Shown here: positions 7,805 through 52,298 of the stretch, one piece after another
Layout: every line of letters starts with the position of its first letter
Numbering within the stretch: the first letter of the stretch is position 1
Source of the DNA: an uncultured Lachnospiraceae bacterium
Lineage (GTDB): Bacteria; Bacillota; Clostridia; Eubacteriales; Anaerofustaceae
Assembly: GCA_964644555.1 (NCBI GenBank)
Contig: CAZXWI010000001.1
Span: 1 to 53,106 of the forward strand
DNA: 53,106 nucleotides
Reading direction: 5' to 3'
Notes under the pieces: model-generated
What the model was told of the DNA's origin: nothing
Database searches by the model: none
The model's input: the letters and a program-made list of their open reading frames with translations, nothing else
Made by a program: the position numbers and the translations under genes

Positions 7805-8566
7805 CTACTCTCCTACCAAATCCTCCATATCATATAGTCCGCTCGGCTTTCCTACGATAAACTTAGCGGCTCTCACAGCACCCGAAGCAAATACTCTTTT
7901 GGACATGGCACTATGATGAACAGTAATTATTTCATCGTCTGAAATATACATTACTTCATGTTCGCCTGCTATTGCACCGCCCCTTATGGCATGAACTCCT
8001 ATTTCATTTGAGCATCTTTTGCATTGACCGTTTCGGCCGTATACCAAATCATAATCGGTTTGGGTGTTTTTTTGTATGGTATCAAGCAGCATCTTCGCCG
8101 TACCACTGGGAGCATCTGCTTTTTTATTGTGATGAGCTTCAATTACTTCAATGTCGAAATCTTCATATAAAAGCCTTGTTGCCAATGCGATGATTTTTTT
8201 CATTACATTGACTCCGTAAGAAAAGTTCGCACTTCTGAAAACGGCTATCTCTTTTGACGCTTCTTTAATAAGATTTTCGCATTCTTCGCTTATTCCAGTT
8301 ACGGCACTAACAAGTGGCTTTTTATTTTTCATACACCACTTTGTAATTTCATCGGTAAGTGAAAAATGTGAAAAATCTATTACAATATCCACATCTTCTT
8401 TTATGTTTTCAAGGCTTTTATATATAGGAAAAGGCTCTGTTTGTTCACTTACCAAAGGCTCAAAACCGCAACTTATCGAAAAAGAATCACTTTCGTTTAT
8501 AAGCGAAGTCACAACCTTCCCCATAGCACCTAAAGCACCACATAATAAAACTTTTATCTCACTCAT
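7805..8566 (-). CDS. dapB: 4-hydroxy-tetrahydrodipicolinate reductase
   Basis: N-terminal Rossmann GALGAMG and the DapB signature EAHHNKKADAPSGTA. Confidence 0.92.
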   Translation of the reverse strand: MSEIKVLLCGALGAMGKVVTSLINESDSFSISCGFEPLVSEQTEPFPIYKSLENIKEDVDIVIDFSHFSLTDEITKWCMKNKKPLVSAVTGISEECENLIKEASKEIAVFRSANFSYGVNVMKKIIALATRLLYEDFDIEVIEAHHNKKADAPSGTAKMLLDTIQKNTQTDYDLVYGRNGQCKRCSNEIGVHAIRGGAIAGEHEVMYISDDEIITVHHSAMSKRVFASGAVRAAKFIVGKPSGLYDMEDLVGE

Positions 8567-8574
8567 AATTTCAC

Positions 8575-9459: not shown

Positions 9460-9644
9460 TTCTCCCGATACATATTATTGTTATAAACTCGGCAATTTCA
9501 AATTACCTTTATAAAATTATAAATAAATGATGATAATTATGCAAGAGGTTGAAGTGTTATTATGCTTTAAATTTTATCTTTATAATTATTAAAAAGCCTT
9601 GTTTACAAAGCGATTTTAATATATGCTTATGTGTAGTTTAAAAT

Positions 9645-11390: not shown

Positions 11391-12275
11391 TTATCTTGTT
11401 CTGAACCATGTTACATCCGAACTTGTAGGAAGAAGGAAATAATAGCCTCCGTCCTTCTCTGTAAGGAATGAGTTAACATTTTTTCTGAACTGCTCTTGAT
11501 TTACCAATTCGGGATAGTCCGTGGCATTAATAAGATCTTCGTAAGCAGCTTCCTTTGTGGGATACCATTTATCCCAGCCTTCATCTACTTTTGTGATATG
11601 CACCTCAATACCCTGTTCTTCCAAAACTTTTTTAAGGCTCGGACCATGCATGGGCAGCTTGTCGCTCATATCTATAGGACCACGACCTCCGAAAAGCTCT
11701 GTTTTTTCACCGGGTTTGGGTTCTGGTCTTTTTCTTTCTCGATCAAAAGGTCTTAAATCGGGGTGAGCCTGCATTGCCTCTTCGGAGTAACAATCTGTGA
11801 AGAGTTTACCTCTCGATTCGGGCAAACAAGGAGCGCCGTCCGACCACATAACGCTTACGGCAAATTGTCTTGCAGCCTTTTGAAGCATTTTAAGCGAGCT
11901 TGGGCCTCCGCCACCTCTTGACTGAATTACAACATCAACTTCCGGTATGGTAGTTCCGATTTCCGTTTCCTGCCAATCGGCATAAACAAATTCAACATTG
12001 GTTATACCTGCGGCTTCGCAGTTTTTTCTGCATTCTTCAAGCATACCCTCGGAGTTATCAAGGCAAATAACTTTTTTTACTCTCTTTGCAGCCTGTATTG
12101 CCACTCGTCCAGGGCCACAGCCGCAGTCCAAAACTACCATGTCTTCCGTAAGAGGCATTGCATCTAATTGCAAATTCGTTCCGTTTACTTCCATCAAAGT
12201 CATAAAGCTGTAGCCTCTTGCAGCTTTATCCCACATACTGGGTTTGACAGGAGTAGCTATTATGGTTTCTGTCAT
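11391..12275 (-). CDS. Class I SAM-dependent methyltransferase with uncharacterised C-terminal domain
   Basis: SAM motif I VLDCGCGPGRVA and post-I acidic residue (CLDNSEGM). The start was moved to the MTETII ATG (12275) because the longer ORF overlaps the upstream gene by 23 nt. Confidence 0.75.
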   Translation of the reverse strand: MTETIIATPVKPSMWDKAARGYSFMTLMEVNGTNLQLDAMPLTEDMVVLDCGCGPGRVAIQAAKRVKKVICLDNSEGMLEECRKNCEAAGITNVEFVYADWQETEIGTTIPEVDVVIQSRGGGGPSSLKMLQKAARQFAVSVMWSDGAPCLPESRGKLFTDCYSEEAMQAHPDLRPFDRERKRPEPKPGEKTELFGGRGPIDMSDKLPMHGPSLKKVLEEQGIEVHITKVDEGWDKWYPTKEAAYEDLINATDYPELVNQEQFRKNVNSFLTEKDGGYYFLLPTSSDVTWFRTR

Positions 12276-12291
12276 TTTTATTTTTCCGTTT

Positions 12292-13116
12292 CTATAATAG
12301 ATTCCAATTACCAACCGATTTTCTCACATCAGTAAATCCGTACTTCACAAAATCGGTATTTAAAAATTCCTTTAAAAATTCTTCGGCAGCTTCCTTATTC
12401 TGTGCATTATCGGGTATTACCGCCGCATGAAATATAGTTGTGCCGAATATTTCGTTTCCGCCGTCAACAACAAAAGACACCTTGTTATACTCTTCTTCGA
12501 AATTTTCATCCCCCAAATTCATAACTTTCGGCAAAAGAGCATAATTAAAATTGTTACCTACTGCGGAACTTCGATAGGATATCTGATATACATTATCTTC
12601 GCACATTGGGGCAAATGCCTTATGCTCAGGCTTTTTATTATCGGGCTTTCTGTTTCTTTCGTACTGCTTTCTGTCTAAGCCCTTATAATTTGGGTTTGAA
12701 AATATTCTTTCGCTCAAACCATCTTCAACCCTATCCGCAAGCTTGATTGCCATAACGGCTCTGTATCCGCTCGGGTCGTCGTAAGGGTTCATATGTTTTA
12801 ATGTTGCCTCATCTGAGGTAAGCTTTTCAGCCCAATTATCATCATTTACATCATTTCCCACAACAACCATCTCATTTCCGCCCCAAATGTAGTATCCGCT
12901 ACAATATTCGGGCATCATCAATTGCTTGATGTTGCTGTCATCGGCAAGGAGCATCAAATCGAATTTTTCGCCTGATAAAAGCTTGTTGATACCGCCTGTA
13001 GAGCCGCCCATAATAAGCTCGCACTCCATATCGGGGTTTTCTTTTTTATAACGCTCTAATGTTTCTTTGGCAATTTTTCCACATACACCTGCGCTGAATA
13101 TTCTAAGCATTTTCAC
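12292..13116 (-). CDS. ModA/WtpA-like periplasmic-binding-protein-fold protein lacking a signal peptide (predicted cytoplasmic)
   Basis: Type-II PBP-like blocks (IMGGSTGGINKLLSGEKFDLMLLADD, DPSGYRA) resemble oxyanion-binding proteins. There is no hydrophobic N-terminus or lipobox. Confidence 0.6.
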   Translation of the reverse strand: MKMLRIFSAGVCGKIAKETLERYKKENPDMECELIMGGSTGGINKLLSGEKFDLMLLADDSNIKQLMMPEYCSGYYIWGGNEMVVVGNDVNDDNWAEKLTSDEATLKHMNPYDDPSGYRAVMAIKLADRVEDGLSERIFSNPNYKGLDRKQYERNRKPDNKKPEHKAFAPMCEDNVYQISYRSSAVGNNFNYALLPKVMNLGDENFEEEYNKVSFVVDGGNEIFGTTIFHAAVIPDNAQNKEAAEEFLKEFLNTDFVKYGFTDVRKSVGNWNLL

Positions 13117-13126
13117 CTCCGTATAA

Positions 13127-13897
13127 CTAACAGACTATGCAAACATTTCGTTTGGCATCTTCGTCATATACAGTTTTAATATCGAGATTATATAATGACG
13201 AAAGCATTTCCTTATTTAGGGTATCAGCCGCATGCCCCACACCCAATACACCGTTTTTGTCAAGTATTGCAACTTTGCCGTCAAGTATAATTGCGTGATC
13301 CGGATTATGTGTAGTCATAATTACGGCATACCCCTCTTTCGCAAGTTCTTTTACCATTTGCACAACACGATATTGATTGCCGTAATCAAGATGTGCCGTT
13401 GGTTCATCAAGCAAAATAAGCTTGGGCTGTTGTGTTAAAGCTCTTGCTATGGTAACTTGCTGACGCTCTCCCCCCGATATTTCGGTATAAGCTTTGTCCT
13501 TAAGATGAAGTATATTCATTCTCTCCAGGGATTCTTCGGCTATCATATAATCCTCTTTTGACGGTTTTGAGAATGTTCCGATATAGGGTGTTCTGCCCAT
13601 AACGGTAAATTCCAATACGGTATATGCATAAGCAGGAGTATGTATCTGCGGCACATATCCTATTATTCTGGCAACATCGTTCATGCTCATTGAACTTGAA
13701 TCTTTACCGTTTAAATATATATGTCCGCTTGCGGGTTTAAACAGATTCGCAATGCAGTTCAGCAAAGTGGACTTGCCAGCACCGTTTGTTCCCAAAATGG
13801 ACAGAACCTCGCCCTCATCAAGCTGAAAACAAACATCATGAAATATAGTTCGGCTGTTATAATATTTGTAGCTTAAATCTTGTACATCAAGTATCAT
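13127..13897 (-). CDS. ABC transporter ATP-binding protein, FepC/BtuD (type II importer) family
   Basis: Walker A GTNGAGKST, signature ISGGERQ, Walker B LILLDEPT. 4-nt overlap with the permease gene. Confidence 0.9.
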   Translation of the reverse strand: MILDVQDLSYKYYNSRTIFHDVCFQLDEGEVLSILGTNGAGKSTLLNCIANLFKPASGHIYLNGKDSSSMSMNDVARIIGYVPQIHTPAYAYTVLEFTVMGRTPYIGTFSKPSKEDYMIAEESLERMNILHLKDKAYTEISGGERQQVTIARALTQQPKLILLDEPTAHLDYGNQYRVVQMVKELAKEGYAVIMTTHNPDHAIILDGKVAILDKNGVLGVGHAADTLNKEMLSSLYNLDIKTVYDEDAKRNVCIVC

Positions 13898-14940
13898 GTC
13901 AAAGTCCTGTTCTGTTTAATTAAAATGAAAATAAAGAAAGGTGCGCCGATTATACCCGTCAATACGCCCAATTTGAGTTCAGCCGTAGATAATGTTCTGC
14001 AAAGCATATCTATTATAAGCATAAAGATTGAACCCAAAAGCATTGCCATAGGAAGCATTTTTTTATTGTCAGAGCCGATAAGCATTCGGGATGTGTGAGG
14101 TATTATCAAACCTACCCAGCCGATACTGCCCGAAACACTTACGCAACTTGCGGTTATCAATGTTGAAAAGAAAATAAACATTCCTCTGGTTTTTTGAAGA
14201 TTGATTCCCAGTGAACGTGCTTCGTTATCTCCCAAAGACAAAACATTGAGTCGATAACGCATTAATATAATCAAAAAGCACGGTATCAACACCATCGGCA
14301 ATATCGACAAAAGTTCCGACATGGTTATTGTGGCAAACGACCCCATTGTCCAATAAGTGATTTCCGCCAATTGAGTATCGGTATCAGCCAAAGCTTTTAT
14401 TACACTCATTACCGATGACATAAGGCTGCTTACCACGACACCGGATAAGATAAGTATCGTAGTGGATTGACTTTTAATCAATTTCGGAATGAGCGTTGTA
14501 ATAAATACCGCCGCAATTCCTCCAATGAATGCCAAAAGCTGAATAAAGAGGCTGTTGAAATTCAATAAAATAGCAACTGCCGCCCCTATGCACGCACCGG
14601 ATGAAACCCCAAGTAAATCGGGGGATGCCATCGGGTTTTTGAATATGCTTTGATAACAAGCACCCGATAAAGCAAGCCCTGCCCCTACGACTACCGATGT
14701 CAATGTTCGGGGTAAACGCAGATTAATTACCACAGCTTCCTCGATATTCGACCATGTTTTTTTAATGCCGAAAATTTTTGATGCCAAAATTTTAATTACA
14801 TCACCCAAATTAATGCTGTATCGCCCAAGTGCAAGTGATGCGGCTACCGTCAGTAACAGAGCCGCAAACACTATGCCGACAACAACCCGATATTTTTTAT
14901 CGGAAAAATTTGTGGATTTATTGTCAATTGATTTTTTCAT
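13894..14940 (-). CDS. FecCD/BtuC-family ABC importer permease
   Basis: About 10 TM helices and conserved FecCD blocks (RLPRTL, GAGLALSG, NPMASPDLLGVSSGA, TGIIGAPFFI). Confidence 0.9.
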   Translation of the reverse strand: MKKSIDNKSTNFSDKKYRVVVGIVFAALLLTVAASLALGRYSINLGDVIKILASKIFGIKKTWSNIEEAVVINLRLPRTLTSVVVGAGLALSGACYQSIFKNPMASPDLLGVSSGACIGAAVAILLNFNSLFIQLLAFIGGIAAVFITTLIPKLIKSQSTTILILSGVVVSSLMSSVMSVIKALADTDTQLAEITYWTMGSFATITMSELLSILPMVLIPCFLIILMRYRLNVLSLGDNEARSLGINLQKTRGMFIFFSTLITASCVSVSGSIGWVGLIIPHTSRMLIGSDNKKMLPMAMLLGSIFMLIIDMLCRTLSTAELKLGVLTGIIGAPFFIFILIKQNRTLT

Positions 14941-14961
14941 TGTTAAGAATTAAAAGTAAAA

Positions 14962-16077
14962 TTAGTTAAGTTCCTGTGTTCCATCAGGAAGCAAACCGTT
15001 TAACATATTGTTAGCCTGATCTTTTGTAAGCTCAGTGCCGTTCATTGTTTTGTAAAAGCTAATGATCTGCTCTGCCATGTAATCTTTTGTTATGCCGTTA
15101 GCTTCTGCGATTTCAGGCTGGATGCACAATAAAGCGTAATCTACCTGCAAGTAGCTTTCAAGTCCGAATCTATCCCAGTTAAAGCATGCATAGGGGTTGT
15201 TGTAAACTCTGCCGTTCTGAACTGCTTTGAGGTCTTTCCAACCGTCTGATGTTGCAATCTGTTCAAGAAGCTTATGCTGATATACGCCACCAACGATGAT
15301 AACATCAGGGTTTGCAGCAAAGATTTCTTCAACTGTGATTTCGTTGCCGGCAAGATTGATAACTGCAGGTAAGTATTTACCTCCGTTTGCTTCAACCCAG
15401 TTCTGAATAATTGTATTCTGACCCATTGTAGCTGTAAGGCTGTCGCTCTGACCGGAAATGTACATAACTACAGGTTTGTCTTCATCTGCCACATTTGCAA
15501 CGAGGTTTTTGTTGTTTTCAATCTTTGTACCGACTTCTGTACACCACCAGGTGAGTTTTTCTTTGTATTCACCGCCCAAGATTTCAGCGAGCATTGTGTA
15601 TGCCTGAATCATTGTATCGTAGTTACTGAAGTTGATGTTGATTGCGGGAATACCAGCATCTCTGATCTGCTGAGCGTATCCGTCTTTAGCTGATGAAGGA
15701 TGCACGATTACCAGGTCCGGTTCGAGTTTAACGAGTTCTTCAACTGCGGGAGTTGTTCCGCCGAGGCCCTGAATTTCAGTACAACCTTCGTAGAAGAATT
15801 TTGTCCAACCGTTCATTGTTGCAGGTGTGTTCATTGCAAGACCGCTTACGAGGTCTCCTGCACCCATGACAAAGAATGAAGATGTACCTGCAGGCCAAAG
15901 GTTAACGATTGTTTTTACTTCGCCCTCGATAGTTACTTCATCACCGCTCATGTCGGTTACTGTGATTGTTCTGTTTGTAAGATCTTCTTCATTGTTTTTG
16001 GAGCTTGTGCAGCCTGCAAAAACGCTTAAAGCAATAAGAACAACTAATAAAACAGAAACTATTTTTTTCGTTTTCAT
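14962..16077 (-). CDS. Lipoprotein substrate-binding protein of BtuF/FhuD (class III PBP) type
   Basis: Signal peptide with lipobox FAGC. Two-lobe PBP blocks (LEPDLVIV, ANPDVIIVGG). Strong RBS AAGGAGAA. Confidence 0.85.
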   Translation of the reverse strand: MKTKKIVSVLLVVLIALSVFAGCTSSKNNEEDLTNRTITVTDMSGDEVTIEGEVKTIVNLWPAGTSSFFVMGAGDLVSGLAMNTPATMNGWTKFFYEGCTEIQGLGGTTPAVEELVKLEPDLVIVHPSSAKDGYAQQIRDAGIPAININFSNYDTMIQAYTMLAEILGGEYKEKLTWWCTEVGTKIENNKNLVANVADEDKPVVMYISGQSDSLTATMGQNTIIQNWVEANGGKYLPAVINLAGNEITVEEIFAANPDVIIVGGVYQHKLLEQIATSDGWKDLKAVQNGRVYNNPYACFNWDRFGLESYLQVDYALLCIQPEIAEANGITKDYMAEQIISFYKTMNGTELTKDQANNMLNGLLPDGTQELN

Positions 16078-16309
16078 ATTGTTTTCTCCTTAGGTTTTAT
16101 ATTTAAATATCATATCGATATTTAGGCAAAATAAAATGGGTTCCCGTAGTATATAAAATTTTACATACTAAAAAGGAACCCACAGTGTGCGTAAATCAAT
16201 AATATTTCACTTGCAGTATTCCTTTCCAAATACGGGAGGCAAACAAATTTCTTAGTTTACCCATCGGTTATTTTCCTTGGTCAAAGCTTTAGGAATAATA
16301 ACTCGGAAT
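16078..16309 (-). promoter_or_regulatory. Long 5' leader with internal intrinsic terminator (candidate riboswitch or attenuator, class unresolved)
   Basis: On the minus strand, GGGTTCC-TTTT-TAGTAT...ATACTA-CG-GGAACCC is followed by ATTTTATTTT, ending about 50 nt before the start codon. Upstream AAAGGAA can pair with the TTCCTTT of the terminator 5' arm. Confidence 0.45.
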
Positions 16310-16315
16310 AATTTC

Positions 16316-16344
16316 ATTATACTTAATATTCCAAAATGTTGCAA
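16316..16344 (-). promoter_or_regulatory. Sigma-70-type promoter of the importer operon
   Basis: TTGCAA (16339-16344), 17-nt spacer, TATAAT (16316-16321) on the minus strand. Confidence 0.55.
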
Positions 16345-30365: not shown

Positions 30366-30917
30366 ATGAAAAGCACCTCTATTAGAAAAGTAACCATGAT
30401 AGGGCTTATGTCGGCATTGGTTTTTGTGGGGACTCACATAAGAATAAAAATCCCGGTAGGGCTTGACGGAACAATGCTTCATCTGGGCAATGTTTTCTGT
30501 CTTTTATCGGGGATAATTTTCGGGCCTGTTTCAGGGGGGCTTGGTGCAGGACTTGGCAGTGCCATATTTGATTTAAGCAGCGAGTATGCCTCGGAAGTAT
30601 GGATAACATTTATCAATAAATTCGCAATGGGCTTTGTTTCGGGGTTTTTGTCAAAGCATTTACCGAAAAATCTAAACTTTACCCTATCCAAAACCATATC
30701 GGCATTGTGCGGTTCATTGACATATATTATTCTTTATATAGGAAAAACCTACATATATAACCGCTGTATATATTCTCTGCCCATTGAGGGTGTAATGGCT
30801 GTAGTCGGAGTAAAAGCCGCAGTAACTTCGGTAAATTGCTTGATTGCTGTAGTAATAAGTGTGCTATTTGCAAGGGCATTAAAAGAGCCGCTTTCAAAAT
30901 CGGGAATACATTATTAG
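30366..30917 (+). CDS. ECF transporter S (substrate-capture) component
   Basis: 183 aa with 6 hydrophobic helices and a typical S-component N-terminus (KVTMIGLMSALVFVGTHIRIKIP). RBS AAAGGAGAA. Confidence 0.75.
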   Translation: MKSTSIRKVTMIGLMSALVFVGTHIRIKIPVGLDGTMLHLGNVFCLLSGIIFGPVSGGLGAGLGSAIFDLSSEYASEVWITFINKFAMGFVSGFLSKHLPKNLNFTLSKTISALCGSLTYIILYIGKTYIYNRCIYSLPIEGVMAVVGVKAAVTSVNCLIAVVISVLFARALKEPLSKSGIHY

Positions 30918-30920: not shown

Positions 30921-30962
30921 AAAAGACCTTCGTATATTAAATTACAAAGGTCTTATTTTTAT
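30921..30962. terminator. Bidirectional terminator (ECF S gene / hydF-containing operon)
   Basis: Stem AAGACCTT/AAGGTCTT (30923-30954) with a T-run 3' on the plus strand and an A-run 5'. Confidence 0.7.
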
Positions 30963-31042: not shown

Positions 31043-32257
31043 TTACTTATTTTTCTCTTTCAAATAATCTTCGTACAAATCGGGAAGAACTTTGACTCCT
31101 CTTTCCAATATGCCATTCATATACGCAATAGCCAAGCCATAATTCGTCATCGGCACATTTTGGTCAAAAGCACATTTTGTGCGGTATACAAGCTCTCTTG
31201 TGTTGAGCATACAGCCTCCGCAGTGCAAAATAAGCGAATATTTGCTTAAGTCATCCGGAAATCCCGTGCCGCTTGAAAGCTCTATATCAAAATTTGCATT
31301 TGTTCTTTCTTTAAGCCAATGCGGTATCTTGACGCTACCGATGTCATCGCATTGCCTGTGATGAGTGCAGCCCTCCGCTATAAGCACGGTGTCGCCGTCT
31401 TTAAGCCTGTCGATTGCCGTAACCCCCATAACGGCTTCTCTTAAAAAGCCCTTGTGCCTTGCAAGCAATATCGAAAATGATGTAAGAGGAACATCATCGG
31501 GAGTAAGCTTTGAAACAAGCCCAAACACCTGAGAGTCCGTAATTACCATTTTGGGCTTTTTCGATAAAGATTCCAAAGTTTTACTAAGTTCTGTTTCTTT
31601 ACACATAGCAACGATTGCATTCGCATCTAACACATCACGCATCATCATTTGCTGGGGTAGTATCATTCTGCCTTTAGGTGCCGAAGAATCTATGGGAGTA
31701 ACCAAAACCACAATATCCCCATCAGACAACAAATCTTTTACCAAGGGAATCTCTTCATCGTTCGGTTTAAGATAAGCAAGCTTTTCTTTTAATTCGTAAA
31801 TTCCTATATTTTTTTCGGCACTGACATATATTTCATTTTCGCTTGGCTCAGAGTGGTTCGGTTTCATCTCGCATTTGTTATAAGCAATAATATAATTTAT
31901 TTTTTTATCCTCAAACAGCGAAACAAGCTCCCTATCAAGAGAAGTGATTCCCTTTTGTATATCCACCACCAAAACTGCGATATCCGTTTTATTCAGAACC
32001 TGTTTTGTCTTTTTCACTCTCAAAAGACCGAGTTCGCCCTCGTCATCATACCCCGGAGTGTCGATTATCATAACAGGCCCTAACGGCAAAAGCTCCATGG
32101 ATTTGCTCACAGGGTCGGTGGTCGTGCCTTTAGTGTCGGAAACAACCGCCAAATCCTGATTGGTAACCGCATTCACAAGGCTTGATTTTCCTGCGTTTCG
32201 AAGCCCGAAAAAACCTATATGAACCCTCTCTGCCGAGGGTGTATCGTTAAGCCCCAT
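31043..32257 (-). CDS. hydF: HydF-type GTPase ([FeFe]-hydrogenase H-cluster maturation scaffold family)
   Basis: GTPase G1 GLRNAGKSS, G3 DTPG, G4 NKCE. The C-terminal cluster motif EGCTHH...HCGGC matches the HydF CxH...HCxxC signature. Confidence 0.85.
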   Translation of the reverse strand: MGLNDTPSAERVHIGFFGLRNAGKSSLVNAVTNQDLAVVSDTKGTTTDPVSKSMELLPLGPVMIIDTPGYDDEGELGLLRVKKTKQVLNKTDIAVLVVDIQKGITSLDRELVSLFEDKKINYIIAYNKCEMKPNHSEPSENEIYVSAEKNIGIYELKEKLAYLKPNDEEIPLVKDLLSDGDIVVLVTPIDSSAPKGRMILPQQMMMRDVLDANAIVAMCKETELSKTLESLSKKPKMVITDSQVFGLVSKLTPDDVPLTSFSILLARHKGFLREAVMGVTAIDRLKDGDTVLIAEGCTHHRQCDDIGSVKIPHWLKERTNANFDIELSSGTGFPDDLSKYSLILHCGGCMLNTRELVYRTKCAFDQNVPMTNYGLAIAYMNGILERGVKVLPDLYEDYLKEKNK

Positions 32258-32286: not shown

Positions 32287-33390
32287 TTATTTGAATGCAG
32301 CAGCATCTTTGCCCGGTGAGAATATCTTTTGAGCCTGCTCATCGGTAAGGGTAATATCGAATACCGCTTCGTAATAATCTTTTGTTTCCTGAGTTATATC
32401 AATATCGCTGAAAATTTCGGGATAAACGGTTTTTGCAAGCCACATGAGCGTAACAGGAGTATCTACTCCGCAAGTATAACTTCTGTACATACCAAGGGGC
32501 ATTTTGCTTACCTTATTGTTTTCAACTGCGGCAATTCCGCTCCAATCAAAGCTGCCTATAGTATTGTTGTATAAATCATACGGCAATGCCTGGTTAAAGT
32601 TGGTAATAAGTATTCTGTCGGGATTCCATGTGTATACCTGTTCAAGGTTTACCTGAGTTGAATAAGCTGTTTCCATTTCTTCGCCGACATTTTTTGCGCC
32701 AATGGCATCAGCCCACCATTGTCCAAAGAATTTTTTGCCCGATGTGGTTATCATTGTGTCGTTATATTGGAAAAGGAAAAATACTTTTTCTCTCTCTTCG
32801 TTCGAAAGTGATGCCACTCTTTGCTGAACGAAATCATACTTTTCTTCGCTGTATTGTTTAACAAGATCGGCTCTGTCGTTTTCGGGGAATAATTCCGACA
32901 AAAGAGCTATCCAGTTGTTAAGAGTTTCTATTGCATCATAATCCCATTTGCCTGCCGAAATTCCTATAGCCGCAAAGCCCGCATCTTTAAGCTGAGTACC
33001 TATCTGTTCGGATTCGGCACTGTAGAATACAACATCGGGATCAAGTTTGATTATTTCTTCGATATTGATATTAGTTCCGTCAATAAATGCTGTCTGTGCA
33101 TTTAAAATTTCAGGATATAATTCCGATAAGAGGCTGTTCTGTGCGGCACTCATGCTCGGCTGAGCAATACCCACCAATTTTTCCGCAGAATCAAAGAATA
33201 CAGCCAAAACCGACGGAAGCGGATAAATATCGCATACGACTATACGCTCGATATTTTTCGGCACTTCCACCTCATTGTCAGCATGATCGATAATGGTTAT
33301 GGTGTCGGAAGAATTATTTCCGTTCGTTGTGCAACCGAATAACCCAATTACGGTTACTGCTACCAAAAGTAAAGCAACTAATTTTTTCAT
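32287..33390 (-). CDS. Lipoprotein substrate-binding protein of BtuF/FhuD type (paralogue of 14962-16077)
   Basis: Signal peptide plus lipobox FGC. Blocks LDPDVVFY and WNPDRILITN. ATGA overlap with the upstream K-like gene. Confidence 0.85.
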   Translation of the reverse strand: MKKLVALLLVAVTVIGLFGCTTNGNNSSDTITIIDHADNEVEVPKNIERIVVCDIYPLPSVLAVFFDSAEKLVGIAQPSMSAAQNSLLSELYPEILNAQTAFIDGTNINIEEIIKLDPDVVFYSAESEQIGTQLKDAGFAAIGISAGKWDYDAIETLNNWIALLSELFPENDRADLVKQYSEEKYDFVQQRVASLSNEEREKVFFLFQYNDTMITTSGKKFFGQWWADAIGAKNVGEEMETAYSTQVNLEQVYTWNPDRILITNFNQALPYDLYNNTIGSFDWSGIAAVENNKVSKMPLGMYRSYTCGVDTPVTLMWLAKTVYPEIFSDIDITQETKDYYEAVFDITLTDEQAQKIFSPGKDAAAFK

Positions 33391-34529
33391 TCTAAATTTC
33401 TCCTTACAAATTCATTAAAATTTTCTACCAAATTAGGTATTTCTTTTCTGTAAATTCTGCCCGAAAAAGCTTCGTGCGGCAAATTTACGAATTTCGCACC
33501 CGTTGGACAAATGGGTTTATACATCTTATCCGCAATGATGATTTTTGCCTTTTCCAAGTGCGGTATTATTTCATCTTCATCGATAGCCGAAATGCATCCG
33601 TCTCCGATAAAAATGTCATCAATGTCAGTGGCGCAAATTACATTTGCACCGTATCCCGAATGATAATAAAGTGCATTGGCTAACGAAAGCGAAGTAACAC
33701 CTTCTCCGATTATTACCACATCGTCATTCACAAATGTTTTCGGAAGATAGTTTTCTTTAGTTTCAGCCGATAATTTTATCTTATCTATAATATTATCGCT
33801 GAACTCATCACCGTATAAAGCACCTACAACATACGGGATATTAAACCTTTTCTCTAATACTTTTGCGGCTCTCATTGCACAGGACGAAACTACCAAATTT
33901 ACCTTTGCATGTTTTGCTTTAATCATATTCTCGTATGTGTCATTCATTGCCCATACAGAATTGACTTTGATATTGTTTTTCTCAAGTTTTTTTCTTAAAG
34001 ATATATCAGAACCGTTTATCGAAAAATCAAGGGGAGTAACGCCCAAAATGTTTACGCTGAGTTCATCAGATGCCACTTCGTCATCACTGCAAATTCTCTC
34101 GGCAAATTGCTCAAATGCAAGATCTGCTCCTCTGACATACGAATGCATTCCATCGGTTGGAATACCGAATGAAATTATTCCGGTATCTTCTTGTATTTCA
34201 CGGGCTATTGCAGGAATATCCACTCCCGTCATCATCGGTATGGGAGTGCCTGCTATGGCAATGAATTTCGGCTTAAGCACCTCGGCAGCCTTTTTTATAT
34301 CAGATATCAATTTGTCATCATCGCCCAATATTGCTTCGGTTTCGGTTATTGCCGAAATATATACCATGCTGTCCATGTCGTACCATCTCGGTTCGTCATG
34401 GGTGCCGTATGTGGAATTGCACCCTGATGCATCATGCATTATGCACATACCGCCCAATTCGTATAAAGCAGAACATACACCCGATGTATCCGAAGCATAT
34501 GTGGATATTATTTTAGCTGTTTGTTTCAT
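33387..34529 (-). CDS. Nitrogenase component-1-type oxidoreductase subunit, NifK/NifN/BchB-like (380 aa)
   Basis: MHDASGC block resembles the H-G-x-x-G-C motif of the nitrogenase component-1 family. Start set at the ATG forming an ATGA overlap with the upstream stop, with GGAGGG 7 nt upstream. Confidence 0.8.
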   Translation of the reverse strand: MKQTAKIISTYASDTSGVCSALYELGGMCIMHDASGCNSTYGTHDEPRWYDMDSMVYISAITETEAILGDDDKLISDIKKAAEVLKPKFIAIAGTPIPMMTGVDIPAIAREIQEDTGIISFGIPTDGMHSYVRGADLAFEQFAERICSDDEVASDELSVNILGVTPLDFSINGSDISLRKKLEKNNIKVNSVWAMNDTYENMIKAKHAKVNLVVSSCAMRAAKVLEKRFNIPYVVGALYGDEFSDNIIDKIKLSAETKENYLPKTFVNDDVVIIGEGVTSLSLANALYYHSGYGANVICATDIDDIFIGDGCISAIDEDEIIPHLEKAKIIIADKMYKPICPTGAKFVNLPHEAFSGRIYRKEIPNLVENFNEFVRRNLE

Positions 34530-35848
34530 ACACACCCTCCGCAGCCTAAACCCTTTTCGGAAATGAAAGTTTTAACATCTTTTGCATTTTCGTAAGCATC
34601 ACAAAGCATTTCGGCAAATTTGATTATTCCGTCAAAGGCATACAACCCGCCGTCCTCCACGATATTCACAAAATACTCTGTCGATGTAAAATATGCCGCC
34701 TTTTGCCCAATCGCCAAAACTTTTTCTTTTAAGTTGCGGTTTATTCTTCGCATTGATGTATGTATGCTCGGAGCTAAAATCATTTCCGGGGAAATGTTTT
34801 TTAGAATCTCAAAGTCCCTCTTTTCATCTGCAGTAACAGAATCCAGATACACCTTTTTTACATTAAAACCCTTTTTAATTAAAAGTTTAGCTAAACTGAG
34901 TGGTCTAGAAAACGCCGTGTAATCAATAACTATAGGTGTATCGCCTATCAAATCAAGCGCTTTTGCCAAAATTTGGTCGCACTTTGTTATTTCAGGAGAG
35001 TAATCTGGCATACTTACATTAAGAGCATTTGTAAGAACACTTAAATTATCAATAATTTCGTCATAATCAAAGCTAAAGGGCAAATACAAATGGGTCTGTC
35101 CGAATCTTTCGTTTAGGTACTCACCTGCTGTTTTGGCAGCCGGGAATGTGCTTATACATATTGAGCATTCTGCCATTTCAAGGTAATCTTCAAAATTTTT
35201 ATAATCCTGAATCTGCATAAGCTTATATCCGTTGTCGGTTACAAGCTTTGCAAGTTCGCTGTTGTTACTGACGGCAAAATCGCCTCCGACTATGCTAACA
35301 GCTTTTTTATTTATATCTCTTTCTTCGAGCAAGCTATATAGCCGCCTTCTCATAAGTTGATCGGGGGTGAGTCCGCTCTTTCTCATAATGGGGTTCATAT
35401 AGCAGTCGGTAAAACGAACAGTGGGAAACAATCTTCGAAGTTCGGAAAGCACGATATCCAAATCCGTCCCCATAAAATGATGCACACAGCTTGTAAACAA
35501 AAGTACTGCGGGAGGAAGTGTATTAAGCTTATTTAGTATGTCGGTAACACCATCTATTATCAAGCTTTCCATATCACCGTCAAGCACATTTTGTTCTCTT
35601 ACGGCAATGGTGGAAAACCTGTCTGACAGCCCCATTTCAGCCGCAGTTAAAACGACTCCTCTTAGACACCCCTGAGCACACACGAATATTTGGTGAGCCT
35701 CAGGCACAAGCATACCCGTATGCACAATATTCCATGTACCTCTGGCAGGAGCGGAATATTCCAATCCTGTGTCAAATAATTTCGGCAAGCTCGCATCTTT
35801 TATTTTAATATTCGGTTCGTCAATAATTTCGCCGATTTTTTTTAACAT
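34526..35848 (-). CDS. Nitrogenase component-1-type oxidoreductase subunit, NifD/NifE/BchN-like (440 aa)
   Basis: FVCAQGC block aligns by eye with the HGPxGC motif. Further Cys motifs FTSCVHHF, TDCYMNP and ECSICIS; C-terminus ends CGGCV. Start set at the ATG one nt after the NifH-like stop, with GGAG upstream. Confidence 0.8.
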   Translation of the reverse strand: MLKKIGEIIDEPNIKIKDASLPKLFDTGLEYSAPARGTWNIVHTGMLVPEAHQIFVCAQGCLRGVVLTAAEMGLSDRFSTIAVREQNVLDGDMESLIIDGVTDILNKLNTLPPAVLLFTSCVHHFMGTDLDIVLSELRRLFPTVRFTDCYMNPIMRKSGLTPDQLMRRRLYSLLEERDINKKAVSIVGGDFAVSNNSELAKLVTDNGYKLMQIQDYKNFEDYLEMAECSICISTFPAAKTAGEYLNERFGQTHLYLPFSFDYDEIIDNLSVLTNALNVSMPDYSPEITKCDQILAKALDLIGDTPIVIDYTAFSRPLSLAKLLIKKGFNVKKVYLDSVTADEKRDFEILKNISPEMILAPSIHTSMRRINRNLKEKVLAIGQKAAYFTSTEYFVNIVEDGGLYAFDGIIKFAEMLCDAYENAKDVKTFISEKGLGCGGCV

Positions 35849-35849
35849 A

Positions 35850-36605
35850 TCATTCTCCGCATACACTTATTATTTCATTTGCCAAAATTTCATATTGCTT
35901 TGCCATTTCACTTTCGGGGAAGGCTTCTATGACGGTCTTGCCAAGAGATTCGGCTTCCAAAACAATATCACTTCTATCAAGCGAACCTATTATTCTCGAA
36001 TTTATATCCGAAGCAAGCTCTTCGACCTTTTCGGTTTCGTTTTTCACATTTCTTCTGTTTAAAATAAGCCCACCGAAAGAGGAATACCCTCTTTTTTTGA
36101 ACCCTTCTACGGCAACGGCAATGTTAGCCGCCGCATGAAGCGACATATTTTCTCCCGATGTAACCACAAACACATGCTGAGCGTATCCCGGACGCATGGG
36201 CATTGTAAATCCACCGCATACTACATCACCAAGAACATCGTACAATACTATATCCGGCTTATATACTTCGTAAACGCCTTTTTCTTTAAGCTTTTCCAAT
36301 GCAGCGATTATCCCTCGCCCTGCGCAGCCGGTTCCCGGAGTAGGACCTCCTGCTTCCACGCAAATGACACCACCGAAACCAAGCCTTAACATATCATCAA
36401 GCTCAAAATCATTGCCATTTTCTCTTACCAAATCCAGTACCGTAGGTATTTTATTCTCCGAACGAAGAAGTACAGTGGAATCTGCTTTCGGGTCGCAGCC
36501 TATTTGCATTACTTTATATCCTTTTTTAGAAAGTGCAGCCGCCACATTCGAAACCGTAGTGGATTTGCCTATTCCGCCTTTTCCGTAAACAGCGATTCTA
36601 ATCAT
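35850..36605 (-). CDS. NifH/BchL/CfbC-family ATPase (nitrogenase iron-protein-like)
   Basis: P-loop [10 protein letters not shown], switch I CDPKADST, both 4Fe-4S Cys contexts ([13 protein letters not shown]). Confidence 0.9.
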
Positions 36606-37665
36606 TGACTTCTCCTTTTATGTAATCTTTATGATCTCCTCGGTCGCACACTACCTCGTAGCCTATCTGTGCCATTTGCTCTTTTAATATATTTATTCCC
36701 AATTCGGCAGTCAGATCCGTGCCGACCTTGTTATCGTAGAGCATATATTTTTTTCTGACATCACTCGGTGATATGTTCGGCATAACAACATTACATCCAC
36801 ACAACACTCCCAATTTTCGACCGTCGGCATTTGCAGTGCCGAGTGCCGTAGTAGCAGGCAAAAGCACATCGGGCAGCATAATTCGAGTTAAGCTCATTAA
36901 AAATAATGTAAGGCTCACATCTCCGCAAGGTTCTGAGCCAAAGGGGGTATCTTTATGAGAAATGAACGGTCCAATACCCACCATAGCAGGAGAAAATTCC
37001 CCTATAAAGAGCATATCCTTTGCCAAATTCTCAATGCTTTGGTATTTAACCCCCACCATAAATCCACAGCCCACCTGATAGCCTATTTCTTTTAAGTCAT
37101 TTAAGCATCTCATTCTGTTTTCATATTTTTGGTAGGCAGGGTGTATTTTTTCGTATAAATCTTTATCTGCCGCTTCGTGCCTTAAAAGATATCTGTCGGC
37201 ACCCACATTAAAAAGTTTTTCATATGAATTACGGCTGAGTTCACCCACCGACAGAGTAATGGCACAGTCGGGGTATTTCTTTTTTATATCGGATACAATA
37301 TCGCAAAGAATCTCATCTTTGTAATATGTATCCTCACCGCCTTGCAATACGAATGTGCGAAATCCATATTCGTAACCGATATCACAGCACGATAAAATAT
37401 CGTCCTTAGTAAGTCTGTAGCGATTGGCATTTTTATTGGAATGACGAATACCGCAATAGTAGCAATCGTTTTTGCAATAATTGGTAAATTCTATAATGCC
37501 TCGAAAATATATTTTCTTTCCGAATCTATCCACCGATATCTTTTGAGCAAGCTCGGAAGCATAATCAAAGTCCTGCTTGTCGTATGACGATAACAGGTGA
37601 GTCCATTCTTCAAAGCTCAAGCATTTTTCTTCATTCAATTTGTTGATAAGTTGTTTATTATTCAT
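36598..37665 (-). CDS. hydE: Radical SAM enzyme of the HydE/BioB/PylB clade (HydE-like)
   Basis: [13 protein letters not shown]3CX2C motif at about residue 65, GGE block (LQGGED), GCGFMVG block; about 355 aa. Start set at the MNNKQL ATG (37665), which overlaps the ATPase stop. Confidence 0.7.
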
Positions 37666-38749
37666 CGACACCGCACCTTTTTTGAGCAAATGTTGTTTTT
37701 ATGCTCAAATTTCCCAATATACTTAGTCTGTGAGTTAGCACCTCGGCTTCGCTCTTGGGAGAATCCAAGGTAAAGTTAATGATGTACACTCCTGCTTCCC
37801 TATATGGGATACCCATTCTGCCGATAACATATTGGTTATAAGCATGAATTTCCTTGTTGATTTTATCAGCTAATTCATAGTCGCTGAAAATTACGGCAAC
37901 AACGGCTATGACATTTTCCGAGTCATCTATTTGCTTATCTGCCTTTTTATCATCGGAAATTTGTAAAGGCATTATGTTTTTATATATATTTTCTTCCGTT
38001 TCCACTTCTCCGATAACAGCCTTAACTCCGAATACCGATTCGATATTTTCTTCCGTAACTATTTTTGCGGTTTCTCCGAAAACAGCTTCACCGTTTTTCG
38101 GTAGGAGCAATGATTTATCGGCTCGGGAAAGTGCATGAGTCGGATAATGCGTATTGAAAATGCATCCTATATTTTCACTATGAGCTAATTCCGACATGGT
38201 ATTTAACACGATAAGCTGATTTCTGAAATCCAAATTAGATTCGGGCTCGTCCAAAATCAATAGCTTGGGTTCGTTTATCAATGCTCTGGCTATCAACACC
38301 ATTTGAAGCTCGCCGCCGCTTATTTCGTTGCATTTTTTACCCGTTAAATAGGATATGTTGAGCCTTTGCATTAATCTATCGACTTTCTCATAATCTGCCT
38401 TTTTCGGCTGAGAGAACACTCCTATTTTATCGGCAAGACCCAAAAGGATCATATCTTCCGCTTTCATTGACGATGAAGTGCCCTTTGCTTGCGGCACATA
38501 AGAAACATTTTGCCAAAATTTCTTTTGGTTCATTTTGGAAATGTCCTCGCCGTCAAGAGTGCTTAACCCTTTGCTCCATTTCAAAAATCCCATTATGCAC
38601 TTGAGCAATGTAGTTTTACCTGCTCCATTAGGGCCTAAAACTGCAACCAGTTCCCCCGAATTTAGTGTAAAATTTAAATTTTTGATTATATATTTTTCGC
38701 TTTTATATCCGAAAGAAGCGTTTTCTACACATAGCTTCATAATTGCCAC
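37658..38749 (-). CDS. ABC importer ATPase (FepC/BtuD type) with C-terminal TM1266-like domain
   Basis: Walker A GPNGAGKTT, signature ISGGELQ, Walker B LLILDEPE. The last approx. 90 aa (VIAVVAVIF...VIGRMGIPYR...) are homologous to the 87-aa protein at 39743-40006. Confidence 0.85.
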   Translation of the reverse strand: MAIMKLCVENASFGYKSEKYIIKNLNFTLNSGELVAVLGPNGAGKTTLLKCIMGFLKWSKGLSTLDGEDISKMNQKKFWQNVSYVPQAKGTSSSMKAEDMILLGLADKIGVFSQPKKADYEKVDRLMQRLNISYLTGKKCNEISGGELQMVLIARALINEPKLLILDEPESNLDFRNQLIVLNTMSELAHSENIGCIFNTHYPTHALSRADKSLLLPKNGEAVFGETAKIVTEENIESVFGVKAVIGEVETEENIYKNIMPLQISDDKKADKQIDDSENVIAVVAVIFSDYELADKINKEIHAYNQYVIGRMGIPYREAGVYIINFTLDSPKSEAEVLTHRLSILGNLSIKTTFAQKRCGVDE

Positions 38750-39753
38750 CCCTCGGAACGCCTCATTAATGTGATAAAGAATGGAGCTCCGATAATTGCC
38801 GTCAACACCGATATGGGTATTTCCGCAGCCGAAACGCTCCTTGCCAAAGTGTCAACTATAACCAGAAAAGTCCCTCCTAAAATGACCGATGACGGCATTA
38901 ATAACAAGTGGTTATTGCCAAAGAGCATTCTACACATATGCGGTATCAAAAGCCCTACCCAACCGACCTGACCGCACATGGAAACGCATGAAGCGGTAAT
39001 GCCGGTGGAGCACAGAACGCAAACTACCCTGAGTAAATTGATATTAACTCCCGTGGCACGAGCCTCTTCTTCGGAAAGAGGCAAAATATTAAGCCGCCAG
39101 CGCATTAACAAAAGAATAGTTATTCCGATTATTATTATGGGCGAACCCAACAATAGCGATTTATAATTGGCAGCCGATAAATTACCCATAAGCCAATATG
39201 TTATTTCGGGTAGTTCACTTTCCACATCGGCGGTAAATTTCACCAAAGATATCAATGCCGAAAATAGAGAACCTATCATTATTCCTGCCAAAACCACATT
39301 GCTCAAGGCACTTTTTGACTTACTTTTGCCCGAAAGCACGGTAAGCACTACAGCAAGAATGCCGAAAAACAACGATACAAATTGAACTCCAATGAGTTCG
39401 AATCCCAAAAGCAGACCTAAAGCCGCCCCAAATGAAGCCCCCGATGCCACACCCAATGTATCGGGGGTTGCCAAAGGGTTATTAAATAGGCTCTGAAAAG
39501 TGCATCCTGCAGCAGAAAGCCCGGCTCCTGCCAAAAATGCGAGCAATATTCTCGGAAAGCGAATACTCCATAAAACCCGCTCCGTTTGATTTGATAACAC
39601 TTCTCCTCCGAATATGTGAACCTTAATCGATAAAATAACATCCCCTACCGATACATTCATTCGCCCTATGCATAAACAGCACAGTATAGTGAAAACAGGC
39701 AAAATTATCAAAATAATCTTTGATAATAAAGACATTTTGTTACTACTTTTCAT
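38737..39753 (-). CDS. FecCD/BtuC-family ABC importer permease
   Basis: FecCD blocks RFPRIL, GAGLSAAG, NNPLATPDTLGVASGA, TAIIGAPFFI. Start uncertain: 39789, 39753 or 39735. 39753 gives an 11-nt overlap with the upstream gene. Confidence 0.85.
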   Translation of the reverse strand: MKSSNKMSLLSKIILIILPVFTILCCLCIGRMNVSVGDVILSIKVHIFGGEVLSNQTERVLWSIRFPRILLAFLAGAGLSAAGCTFQSLFNNPLATPDTLGVASGASFGAALGLLLGFELIGVQFVSLFFGILAVVLTVLSGKSKSKSALSNVVLAGIMIGSLFSALISLVKFTADVESELPEITYWLMGNLSAANYKSLLLGSPIIIIGITILLLMRWRLNILPLSEEEARATGVNINLLRVVCVLCSTGITASCVSMCGQVGWVGLLIPHMCRMLFGNNHLLLMPSSVILGGTFLVIVDTLARSVSAAEIPISVLTAIIGAPFFITLMRRSEGWQL

Positions 39754-40006
39754 CTTTGTAAACAACTCCCGAATATGCCGTTTTGGCACTTATTCCGTTA
39801 AGGCGACCTATTTTACCGGATATGGCGCTTATTATATCCTGTGGTGCATCAACCGCAACACTCAAAATATTGATTCCTCTCTTTCGATACGGAAGTCCCA
39901 TTCTGCCTATTATATATTCGCCGTATTCGTGAAGTATCCCATTGAGAGATTCCACCGAATCCGTATTTTCTACTATAATTCCTATGACGGCAATTCTTGT
40001 TTCCAT
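39743..40006 (-). CDS. TM1266-family small protein ('iron-only hydrogenase system regulator' family, ACT/NikR-C-like fold)
   Basis: 87 aa, RIAVIGIIVEN...IIGRMGLPYRKRGINILSVAVDAP pattern. RBS AAGGAG 7 nt before the ATG. Confidence 0.7.
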   Translation of the reverse strand: METRIAVIGIIVENTDSVESLNGILHEYGEYIIGRMGLPYRKRGINILSVAVDAPQDIISAISGKIGRLNGISAKTAYSGVVYKDEK

Positions 40007-40145
40007 ATTCGCTCCTTAAAAAATAAACTGCACCCTTAAAGATGCAGTTATCCCTTAGCATTGCTACAACGTTGTAACTCAAAAGAAAAATTATTTCTGC
40101 ATCTTCCATCTCAAAACGAATTTTCAATGTTAGAATACTTATTTA
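40007..40145 (-). promoter_or_regulatory. 5' leader with mutually exclusive terminator and antiterminator hairpins
   Basis: Minus-strand RNA has AACTGCA-tctttaaggg-TGCAGTT followed by TATTTTTT directly before the RBS. Upstream AAGATGCAG (40097-40105) is perfectly complementary to CTGCATCTT (40039-40047). The palindrome TACAACGTTGTA lies between them. Confidence 0.5.
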
Positions 40146-40152: not shown

Positions 40153-40182
40153 ATTATACTATGATTTTCACCTTGCCTGCAA
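40153..40182 (-). promoter_or_regulatory. Sigma-70-type promoter of the nitrogenase-like operon
   Basis: TTGCAG (40177-40182), 18 nt, TATAAT (40153-40158) on the minus strand. Confidence 0.5.
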
Positions 40183-52211: not shown

Positions 52212-52298
52212 GCGAATATGGCGGAATAGGCAGACGCGCATGGTTCAGGTCCATGTGGAGGCGACTCCATGCAGGTTCAACTCCTGTTATTCGCACCA
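52212..52298 (+). tRNA. tRNA-Leu (anticodon CAG), type II with long variable arm, CCA encoded
   Basis: Acceptor GCGAATA/TATTCGC, anticodon stem CATGG/CCATG with loop TTCAGGT, variable arm GGAG-GCGA-CTCC, T-loop TTCAACT, 3' ACCA. Confidence 0.9.

Follow-up and report, generated by a model that had tools for sequence, protein, structure and literature searches.

A hydE gene in a hydG-less clostridial operon with nitrogenase-like and ABC importer genes

Why does a gene for a HydE-like radical S-adenosylmethionine (SAM) protein lie between the genes for an ATP-binding cassette (ABC) ATPase and a nitrogenase Fe-protein-like (NifH-like) protein, and what does its product do there? This question is raised by a 53,106-nt stretch of DNA (hereafter the window) from an uncultured Lachnospiraceae bacterium (GenBank assembly GCA_964644555.1, contig CAZXWI010000001.1, positions 1 to 53,106), an organism represented by metagenome assemblies only. 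The gene, hydE (36598..37665, minus strand; 355 amino acids), is the focus of this analysis and the fourth gene of a nine-gene operon. Our analysis identifies the encoded protein, on sequence grounds, as a genuine, orthodox HydE and more than a HydE-like protein. We class the operon as a variant, not a member, of the canonical clostridial TM1266-hydE-hydG-hydF(-aspA) type, since neither the window nor any of 89 related loci of the same kind (Nif-type loci) contains hydG. The arrangement of the genes points to a nitrogenase-like (Nif-like) trio inserted into a hydrogenase (hyd) maturase operon in the place of hydG, between hydE and hydF.

The assignment to HydE rests on an equivalog score far over the cutoff and on conservation of all residues named in the mechanism. 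The NCBIfam HydE equivalog model (TIGR03956) gave 534 bits against a cutoff of 254.6 and was covered over positions 1-340 of 340. Sister radical SAM families stayed below their cutoffs, with 153.5 bits for PylB (cutoff 348), 77.5 for ThiH (380), 76.3 for BioB (225), 73.1 for HydG (312) and 53 for HmdB (321). Comparison with PDB entries gave 291 bits for Thermotoga maritima HydE (TmHydE), which is 45% identical to the window protein, versus 98 for PylB, 70 for HydG and 55 for ThiH. A chance open reading frame (ORF) was ruled out by these matches (E = 1.6e-160 for the equivalog model and E = 8e-86 for the T. maritima HydE structures). No NifB model was present among the 18 NCBIfam matches at E <= 1e-5.

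Three motifs were identified in the hydE product, namely CKNDCYYC (the CX3CX2C motif, corresponding to T. maritima C63/C67/C70), VLQGGED and QVGCGFMVG. The CX3CX2C motif and the GGE block are invariant in 108 of the 108 clostridial HydEs compared, and the TmHydE reference has both. For the residue check, TmHydE numbering was transferred to the HydE alignment, and conserved equivalents were found for E58, C63/C67/C70, V105, R155, L157, R159, M224, T268/T269, R279, M291 and K309. In TmHydE, E58 and K309 form a salt bridge, V105 and L157 contribute to the cavity, and M224 and M291 are Fe(I) ligands (PMC11826987); these synthon and Fe(I)-intermediate residues are kept in the window HydE and in 44 of 44 Nif-linked HydEs. 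Among the checks proposed in a preliminary description of the locus, the one on HydE-specific pocket residues therefore found every mechanism-named residue conserved, and the one on the optional second-cluster cysteines found no aligned triad in the window HydE at the positions of T. maritima C311/C319/C322. Cysteine is likewise lacking at these C-terminal positions in 25 of 44 Nif-linked HydEs versus 8 of 47 hydG-linked ones. The triad is dispensable and variably conserved in HydE, and it is therefore not family-defining.

The hydE ORF ends at 36598 on the minus strand. Its longest form starts from TTG at 37689 (363 amino acids) and the ATG at 37665 gives 355 amino acids, a start also used by independent gene calls on four metagenome contigs encoding an identical protein. 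On the coding strand, the hydE start overlaps the ABC ATPase stop by 8 nt (ATGAATAA) and the NifH-like start overlaps the hydE stop by 8 nt (ATGATTAG). Hence the preliminary description was accurate on the gene itself, in its coordinates, its length of about 355 amino acids, its CX3CX2C, GGE and GCGFMVG blocks and its two overlaps; the strand, which it had left unstated, is minus. Both overlaps are ordinary translational coupling; all nine genes of the operon, which runs from 40006 down to 31043 on the minus strand, overlap or are at most 29 nt apart.

The order in the operon is leader RNA, TM1266-like gene, FecCD permease, ABC ATPase::TM1266 fusion, hydE, nifH-like, nifD-like, nifK-like, binding-protein gene and hydF. 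The last gene, hydF (31043..32257, minus strand; 404 amino acids), encodes the scaffold GTPase and scored 547 bits with TIGR03918 against a cutoff of 325.6; HydF_dimer and HydF_tetramer domains and a CxH...HCxxC motif at amino acids 297-349 were identified in its product. The first gene (39743..40006, minus strand; 87 amino acids) is a stand-alone TM1266-like gene, matching PF21699 at 109 bits and PDB entry 2nzc (T. maritima TM1266) at 45 bits; Pfam names PF21699 'putative iron-only hydrogenase system regulator'. The ABC ATPase and NifH-like neighbours reported in the preliminary description are real, but hydF, both TM1266-like parts and the binding-protein gene had been overlooked. Its premise that this HydE is away from its normal partners does not hold, as hydF is in the same operon and the TM1266-like gene and domain, usual companions of hydEGF, are present. 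The window operon resembles the canonical clostridial and Thermotoga hyd operon in its TM1266-like first gene, its hydE and hydF orthologues, its leader RNA and, in some loci, an aspA-like gene after hydF. It differs in lacking hydG, in having nifH-, nifD- and nifK-like genes and a binding-protein gene in that slot, and in having the FecCD permease and ABC ATPase::TM1266 genes before hydE.

About 170 related loci were compared, with as much as 10 kb of sequence to either side of the gene. The HydE-seeded set comprised 80 loci from species-representative genomes, 54-67% identical and all from different assemblies. The NifD-seeded set comprised 76 unique loci from metagenomes; in 27 of these the flanks reached 5 kb or more upstream and 6 kb or more downstream. 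The canonical compact TM1266-hydE-hydG-hydF operon, sometimes followed by aspartate ammonia-lyase (aspA), was found in 46 of the 80 HydE-seeded loci, and the HydG of the canonical loci was verified at 941 bits. Nif-like genes instead of hydG were found in 14 (plus two truncated) of the 80. The exact gene order of the window is represented by 11 full-length HydE-seeded examples, and the order TM1266-(hydF)-hydE-nifHDK by four Ruminococcus loci. A hydE alone, without hydG, hydF or Nif genes, was found in at least 10 of the 80 loci. Among the 27 well-flanked NifD-seeded loci, TM1266 was present in 27, the importer in 21, HydE in 17, HydF in 15 and hydG in none. Over all sets, within the locus flanks, hydG was present in 0 of 89 Nif-type loci and the trio in 0 of 47 hydG-type loci.

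Comparison of the Nif-type clusters revealed that gene order varies, with hydE before the importer, hydF-aspA upstream, or hydE and/or hydF absent. The preliminary description implied a fixed position for hydE directly before the H-D-K genes, but the gene comes ahead of the importer genes in L108 and L121 and after hydF-aspA in L138 and L142, and L088, L098 and L151-L163 are without it. The tie between the trio and TM1266 and the exclusion of hydG are constant through all gene orders. An aspA-like ammonia-lyase gene follows hydF in the Nif-type loci L015, L033, L090 and L095; this gene is a known hydF companion (PMC11736057). All-vs-all clustering for further conserved genes near the Nif-type clusters gave only spurious antisense ORFs and HypF. 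The carriers are gut, rumen and fermenter Clostridia, represented by Oscillospiraceae, Faecousia, Ruminococcus, Intestinibacter, Ruthenibacterium and Clostridium. The linkage of HydE to Nif-like H-D-K genes in relatives, on which the preliminary description had made its reading depend, is real, conserved and widespread.

Five near-identical loci on human gut contigs of up to 1.12 Mb (L151, L155, L157, L159 and L163) have the order leader-FecCD-ABC::TM1266-nifHDK-binding protein, without hydE. Their flanking genes match those of L169, a metagenome-assembled genome of Intestinibacter sp., so these contigs look Intestinibacter-like. In L169, hydE is present between the ATPase and nifH genes, and it looks as if the gene had been gained or lost there recently.

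Do the Nif-linked HydE and HydF proteins form families of their own? Neighbour-joining trees, built without bootstrap support from 109 HydE and 76 HydF sequences, placed the Nif-linked proteins in one large cluster and at least two further separately branching groups, among or beside the canonical ones, with similar branch lengths for both. Mean HydE identity was 56% between Nif-linked and hydG-linked proteins and 59% and 63% within the two classes. No HydE alignment column separates Nif-linked from hydG-linked proteins at 80%/80%. Of the 25 HydE positions checked, 24 show no more than two substitutions in any of the three context classes. The exception is the equivalent of T. maritima S198, which lies in the window's GCGFMVG block before the invariant Met199 and is occupied by phenylalanine in 42 of 47 hydG-linked HydEs and by methionine, isoleucine or phenylalanine (15/11/9) in Nif-linked ones. 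The HydF cluster motif is kept in 41 of 41 Nif-type HydFs. No second hydE was found in the 53-kb window, nor from any Nif-type genome among the top 80 HydE matches; no assembly occurred twice among the 80 HydE-seeded loci, which is weak evidence against a second copy. A divergent paralogue family for the Nif-linked HydEs was rejected, given that there are no discriminating columns and no long branches. By these comparisons, the Nif-linked HydE and HydF are orthologue-like.

The three Nif-like genes follow hydE directly. The NifH-like Fe-protein (35850..36605, minus strand; 251 amino acids) matches PF00142 at 294 bits and falls below the equivalog cutoffs of nifH (325 versus 394) and CfbC (316 versus 402). 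Its best PDB matches are the Fe protein of the methylthio-alkane reductase (MAR) complex (9fmg_D, 251 bits) and Clostridium pasteurianum NifH; the P-loop is present, and each of 54 sequences has the [4Fe-4S] ligands C94 and C130. The nitrogenase component-1-like subunit D1 (34526..35866, minus strand; an ORF of 446 amino acids, or 440 from the gene-call start at 35848) matches PF00148 weakly, and it gave no NCBIfam match and no PDB match by single-sequence search. Its best match in a profile search was NifE (E = 1e-5), with Cys127 of the invariant TSC(I/V)HH aligned. Foldseek comparison of an AF2 model of D1 (pLDDT 83.7) ranked NifK, VnfK, AnfK, NifN/E, MarD and BchN about equally, at TM ~0.6 and 12-16% identity. 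Residues C63, C67, C127 and C155 of D1 are conserved at 99-100%, and four histidines are also conserved. D1 ends in a G-C-G-G-C tail (34526..34550, minus strand), of which CGGC is 91-93% conserved and predicted to be disordered; this tail resembles the swinging cysteine tails with which HypE and other maturation proteins carry ligands or metals. This nitrogenase-like family comprises 249 representative clusters at E <= 1e-30.

The K1 subunit (33387..34535, minus strand; an ORF of 382 amino acids, 380 in the gene call) matches PF00148 at 107 bits and the NifE model at 73 bits, and its best PDB match is NifE/NifD. Analysis of its conserved residues found C39 to be the sole invariant cysteine, with H34 and H46 also invariant. 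A P-cluster is unlikely in D1K1, because K1 has one invariant cysteine; the cysteine pattern instead resembles the 3+1 [4Fe-4S] site of NifEN or of dark-operative protochlorophyllide oxidoreductase (DPOR). D1K1 is like the NifEN/NifH scaffold and DPOR (BchNB/BchL) in its best match to NifE, in three (plus one) cysteines with one residue from the other subunit and in an ATP-dependent Fe-protein. It differs from them in that the match is very remote (E = 1e-5), no nif or bch genes are nearby, D1 has the CGGC tail and an ABC importer lies alongside. A true nitrogenase (Nif/Vnf/Anf) was considered for the trio and rejected, with the NifH-like protein under its cutoff, D1 without an NCBIfam match and K1 with one invariant cysteine. 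Small proteins with a Nitro_FeMo-Co (NifX/NafY-like cofactor-binding) domain are encoded near two Nif-type clusters, in L002 (15337..16089) and L133 (12890..13294, minus strand).

The importer, of the chelate/oxyanion type, is encoded on both sides of hydE and the trio. The FecCD/BtuC-type permease gene has its longest ORF at 38737..39789 (minus strand; 338 amino acids from the gene-call start at 39753) and matches PF01032 at 278 bits as well as BtuC and FecCD models. The ATPase gene (37658..38749, minus strand; 360 amino acids from the gene-call start at 38740) matches PF00005 and carries a fused TM1266-like domain at amino acids 281-352 (PF21699, 55.6 bits), a fusion also found in L001, L169, L171 and many other loci. 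The class III (Peripla_BP_2) lipoprotein substrate-binding protein (32287..33390, minus strand; PF01497) has a lipobox cysteine, Cys20, that is 100% conserved. MetN and ModC are subject to trans-inhibition through a C-terminal regulatory domain. The fusion of a TM1266-like domain to the ATPase, as in other regulated ABC importers, suggests that this domain may gate import in a ligand-gated or trans-inhibited manner. As in type II ABC importers (BtuCD-F, FecBCDE, MolBC-A), a FecCD-family permease is combined with a class III binding protein, and the ATPase has an additional C-terminal domain of the small-molecule-binding type; what sets the window importer apart is the TM1266-like fold of this regulatory domain, which is otherwise linked to hyd operons.

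A second flavour of the cluster, without the importer, was found in seven loci (L027, L028, L030, L040, L133, L138 and L142). In these Hyp-type loci a second, divergent NifHDK-like trio and bona fide hypF (730 bits), hypD (374) and hypE (421) genes lie next to trio 1 and hydE/hydF, with the second trio directly coupled to the three hyp genes. Compared with the window proteins, H2 is about 50% identical to the NifH-like protein, D2 about 22-25% and K2 about 27-32%. In L027, hypE lies between nifH2 and nifK2, at the place expected for nifD2. The HypCDEF machinery that builds Fe(CN)2CO for [NiFe]-hydrogenases is thus partly represented beside trio 1 and hydE/hydF in the seven loci, and not in the window; unlike that machinery, the hyp genes of the seven loci are coupled to a second Nif-like trio, and no HypA/B was seen there. 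Neither a HypC signature nor a [NiFe] large subunit was found in any locus examined. Trio 1 accompanied either by an importer or by a cyanide-ligand module would look like the pattern of a salvage-versus-synthesis pair. The locus L080 has hypF (7214..9544) within an otherwise canonical hydF-TM1266-hydE-hydG cluster, so the link between hyp genes and [FeFe]-maturases is not confined to hydG-less loci.

The operon is preceded by a structured 5' leader RNA element (40093..40141, minus strand) of 49 nt, a kink-turn-like hairpin with the consensus C-U-G/A-A-C ... G-R-A-A-G, which scored 47 bits (E = 4.6e-9) with the covariance model R1. A TATAAT box (40158..40153, minus strand) lies upstream of it, and a terminator-like hairpin with a U-tract (40026..40049, minus strand) immediately precedes the ribosome-binding site of the first gene. 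The minimum free energy fold reproduces the element. In the leader alignment (A2), 92% of cells are paired against 21-42% in slid controls, and none of 500 shuffles reached the observed score. Covariation was observed at pair 17-40 (UA13/CG11/GC5/UG5) and pair 21-36 (AU26/GC8). A second helix, joining columns 8-10 with 47-49, was judged by eye and dropped as inconsistent. No Rfam family matches the leader. A search of 2.28 Mb with model R1 gave 76 matches, each of them on the strand of the operon and upstream of a hyd or nif unit. Canonical, Nif-type and Hyp-type operons all have such matches, as do the Nif-only clusters L004 and L151-L163, and in L025 a match immediately precedes hydG. Because the leader RNA is common to both, the trio belongs to the same apparent regulon as the hydrogenase maturases.

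At its 3' edge the leader element has AAGAUGCAG, to which the 5' arm of the terminator, CUGCAUCUU, is complementary. The number of contiguous complementary bases is 10 in the window versus 5.3 in shuffled sequence. Over 35 leaders the mean is 5.8 versus 4.9 in shuffled sequence, a modest but significant difference (Wilcoxon p = 1.8e-4). Leader edge and terminator are a candidate terminator/antiterminator switch, and the leader as a whole is a candidate new riboswitch or protein-dependent attenuator of the hydrogenase-maturation regulon. The TM1266-like gene is usually the first gene after the leader, and its product is a candidate effector of it.

What, then, is the function of the Nif-like enzyme and the importer? 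We consider it fairly probable that this module acts in biosynthesis of the 2Fe subcluster together with HydE and HydF, with HydE doing its usual chemistry. HydE would convert an Fe(CO)2(CN)(cysteinate)-type synthon to the [Fe2(mu-SH)2(CO)4(CN)2] precursor, which HydF would finish and deliver to [FeFe]-hydrogenase. The importer would most likely bring in an iron- or ligand-containing precursor, and the Nif-like enzyme (Fe-protein and D1K1) would process it, either before HydE or in parallel with it, through reduction driven by ATP or as a scaffold. Import would probably be gated by the TM1266 domain of the ATPase, and the leader RNA would set transcription of the operon. Four points weigh against this function. 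Neither hydG nor hydA was found in the 53-kb window, which bears on a hydrogenase as the final client and on this hydE as the sole copy. The trio and TM1266 occur without hydE or hydF within at most 10 kb on each side in L004 and L151-L163, so the trio may not need an adjacent hydE or hydF for its function. We know of no step in the H-cluster pathway that obviously requires an ATP-dependent reductase. The trees behind the orthology of HydE and HydF are, as noted, without bootstrap values.

A stronger form of this function is that the module replaces HydG in genomes without any hydG, with the Nif-like enzyme giving HydE an Fe-CO/CN unit independently of tyrosine and with the help of the importer or of the second trio and HypF/D/E. 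We regard this as possible, with clearly less than an even chance. It is favoured by the distribution of hydG, which adjoins hydE in 46 of the 80 HydE-seeded loci versus none of the 89 Nif-type loci, a contrast that holds in five or more gene orders and in several clades of HydE, and by the physical position of the trio in the hydG slot between hydE and hydF. The absence of hydG was, however, seen within at most 10 kb on each side of the genes, and hydE stands alone in at least 10 of 80 loci, so that an unlinked hydG is common and the trio could have entered an operon that was already without hydG. No HydG of Intestinibacter, which carries a Nif-type cluster, or of Terrisporobacter was among the 120 top-ranking relatives of a Peptostreptococcaceae HydG, a result that is not decisive; the stand-alone TM1266-nifHDK of a Clostridium genome (L004) in turn suggests coexistence with normal maturases. 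The carbamoyl-phosphate-to-cyanide machinery (hypF/hypD/hypE) beside trio 1 in the seven loci, with neither HypC nor a [NiFe] large subunit found nearby, also speaks for replacement, but a CO source is not evident and the synthon-binding residues of HydE are unchanged. HydG-less maturation has already been discussed for Clostridium acetogens (PMC9431212). Extended to its full form, replacement of HydG would mean a second, HydG-independent route to the diatomic-ligated iron unit of the H-cluster, in which a deep-branching Nif-like enzyme makes or processes an Fe-CN/CO precursor from an imported compound or from a product of the second trio and HypF/HypD/HypE, under a new leader RNA class and TM1266-like proteins; we put this forward as a tentative and rather doubtful proposal. 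More speculatively, such an enzyme might cleave the S-C≡N bond of imported thiocyanate or HypE-thiocyanate and place cyanide and sulfide on iron, by analogy with reductive C-S cleavage by MAR and isethionate reductase (ISR).

The preliminary description suggested the opposite direction, with a HydE-clade enzyme in the NifB-type place that may make a sulfur- or carbon-containing ligand or modify the imported substrate. In the form considered here, HydE with HydF would be an accessory of the NifB/NifEN kind, making or altering a metallocofactor with sulfur, carbon or diatomic ligands that is destined for D1K1, or altering the imported substrate. The gene arrangement of the window type lends itself to this idea, as hydE lies directly before nifH-D-K and is translationally coupled, like the radical SAM genes of MarBHDK (methylthio-alkane reductase), IsrBHDK (isethionate reductase) and NfaBHDK (PMC13474568). 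In addition, no NifB gene is present in the cluster, and the four (near-)invariant cysteines, four histidines and flexible CGGC tail of D1 could hold an unusual metal site. Set against these three systems, the window has the same gene order and an Fe-protein most similar to that of MAR, but its radical SAM protein is a HydE and not a NifB homologue, the context is hydrogenase maturation and not sulfur metabolism, and D1 and K1 are only 12-16% identical to MarDK/NifDK. A HydE-clade enzyme in a NifB-type role is not borne out by the protein, which is indistinguishable from canonical HydE, with no NifB similarity, no separating alignment column and similar branch lengths. The position of hydE is not fixed, as the loci listed above illustrate, and in some clusters the gene is missing. 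Moreover, hydF and aspA (the context of the dithiomethylamine bridge) travel with the cluster, ordinary hydEGF operons stand under the same leader RNA, and, as weaker evidence, the top 80 HydE matches held no second hydE from a Nif-type genome. We therefore consider an accessory role of HydE for D1K1 unlikely, and less likely than a HydG-independent pathway.

Least likely of all, and in our view improbable, is co-regulation without a shared pathway, in which the importer and the Nif-like enzyme handle a metal or chelate (Fe, Mo/W, Ni or corrinoid-like) for general use in response to the same signal. The nearest solved relatives of the binding protein agree with such a substrate, namely 4ovk (158 bits, ligand not known), HI_1472 (77 bits), which we take to be a molybdate/tungstate binder, and BtuF (33 bits); the permease and ATPase likewise match BtuCD, FecCDE and heme-type models, and clusters of importer and trio without hydE or hydF exist. 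On the other hand, the TM1266-like gene or domain, which otherwise heads hyd maturase operons here, accompanies the trio in 27 of 27 well-flanked loci, and the linkage to hydE/hydF survives many rearrangements. The other flavour, furthermore, swaps the importer for the hydrogenase-cofactor genes hypFDE and not for other metal-uptake genes. A role of the module in 2Fe-subcluster biosynthesis with HydE and HydF remains the reading we prefer.

Downstream of the operon, a terminator-like hairpin (30923..30954, minus strand), about 90 nt 3' of the hydF stop, is the likely operon end, and the next gene (30366..30917), convergent to the operon, encodes an ECF riboflavin S component. Elsewhere in the window, a Moco riboswitch (RF01055, 74 bits; 16203..16320, minus strand) lies upstream of a second same-strand cluster (11391..16077, minus strand), in which a Peripla_BP_2-type binding protein gene (14962..16077) is followed by four further ORFs; the substrate of this cluster may be related to Mo/W or Moco. 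A tRNA gene (RF00005, 52 bits) is located at 52212..52295 on the plus strand.

A study of hyd-operon neighbourhoods nowhere mentions nitrogenase (PMC11736057), and a 2026 review of nitrogenase-like (NFL) proteins nowhere mentions HydE and states that genomic context has revealed little apart from connections to sulfur and tetrapyrrole metabolism (PMC13474568). Within the reachable literature, targeted searches found no published description of a linkage between HydE/HydF and Nif-like genes. The hydE gene is thus of a known kind, and the hydG-less Nif-like operon is apparently undescribed.

The dedicated maturation machinery is generally held to be complete with HydE, HydF and HydG. An operon that keeps HydE and HydF, lacks HydG and carries an ATP-dependent Nif-like enzyme would imply either an accessory step that has escaped notice or another origin of CO/CN-iron. 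It gives an orphan and sizeable NFL family a specific, testable context, and its leader RNA is a candidate new cis-regulator defining a hydrogenase-maturation regulon. The operon is carried by abundant Clostridia of gut and rumen that produce H2 (Ruminococcus, Oscillospiraceae, Intestinibacter and Faecousia), and for this reason the pathway would bear on H2 turnover in gut and rumen and on the engineering of hydrogenase maturation.

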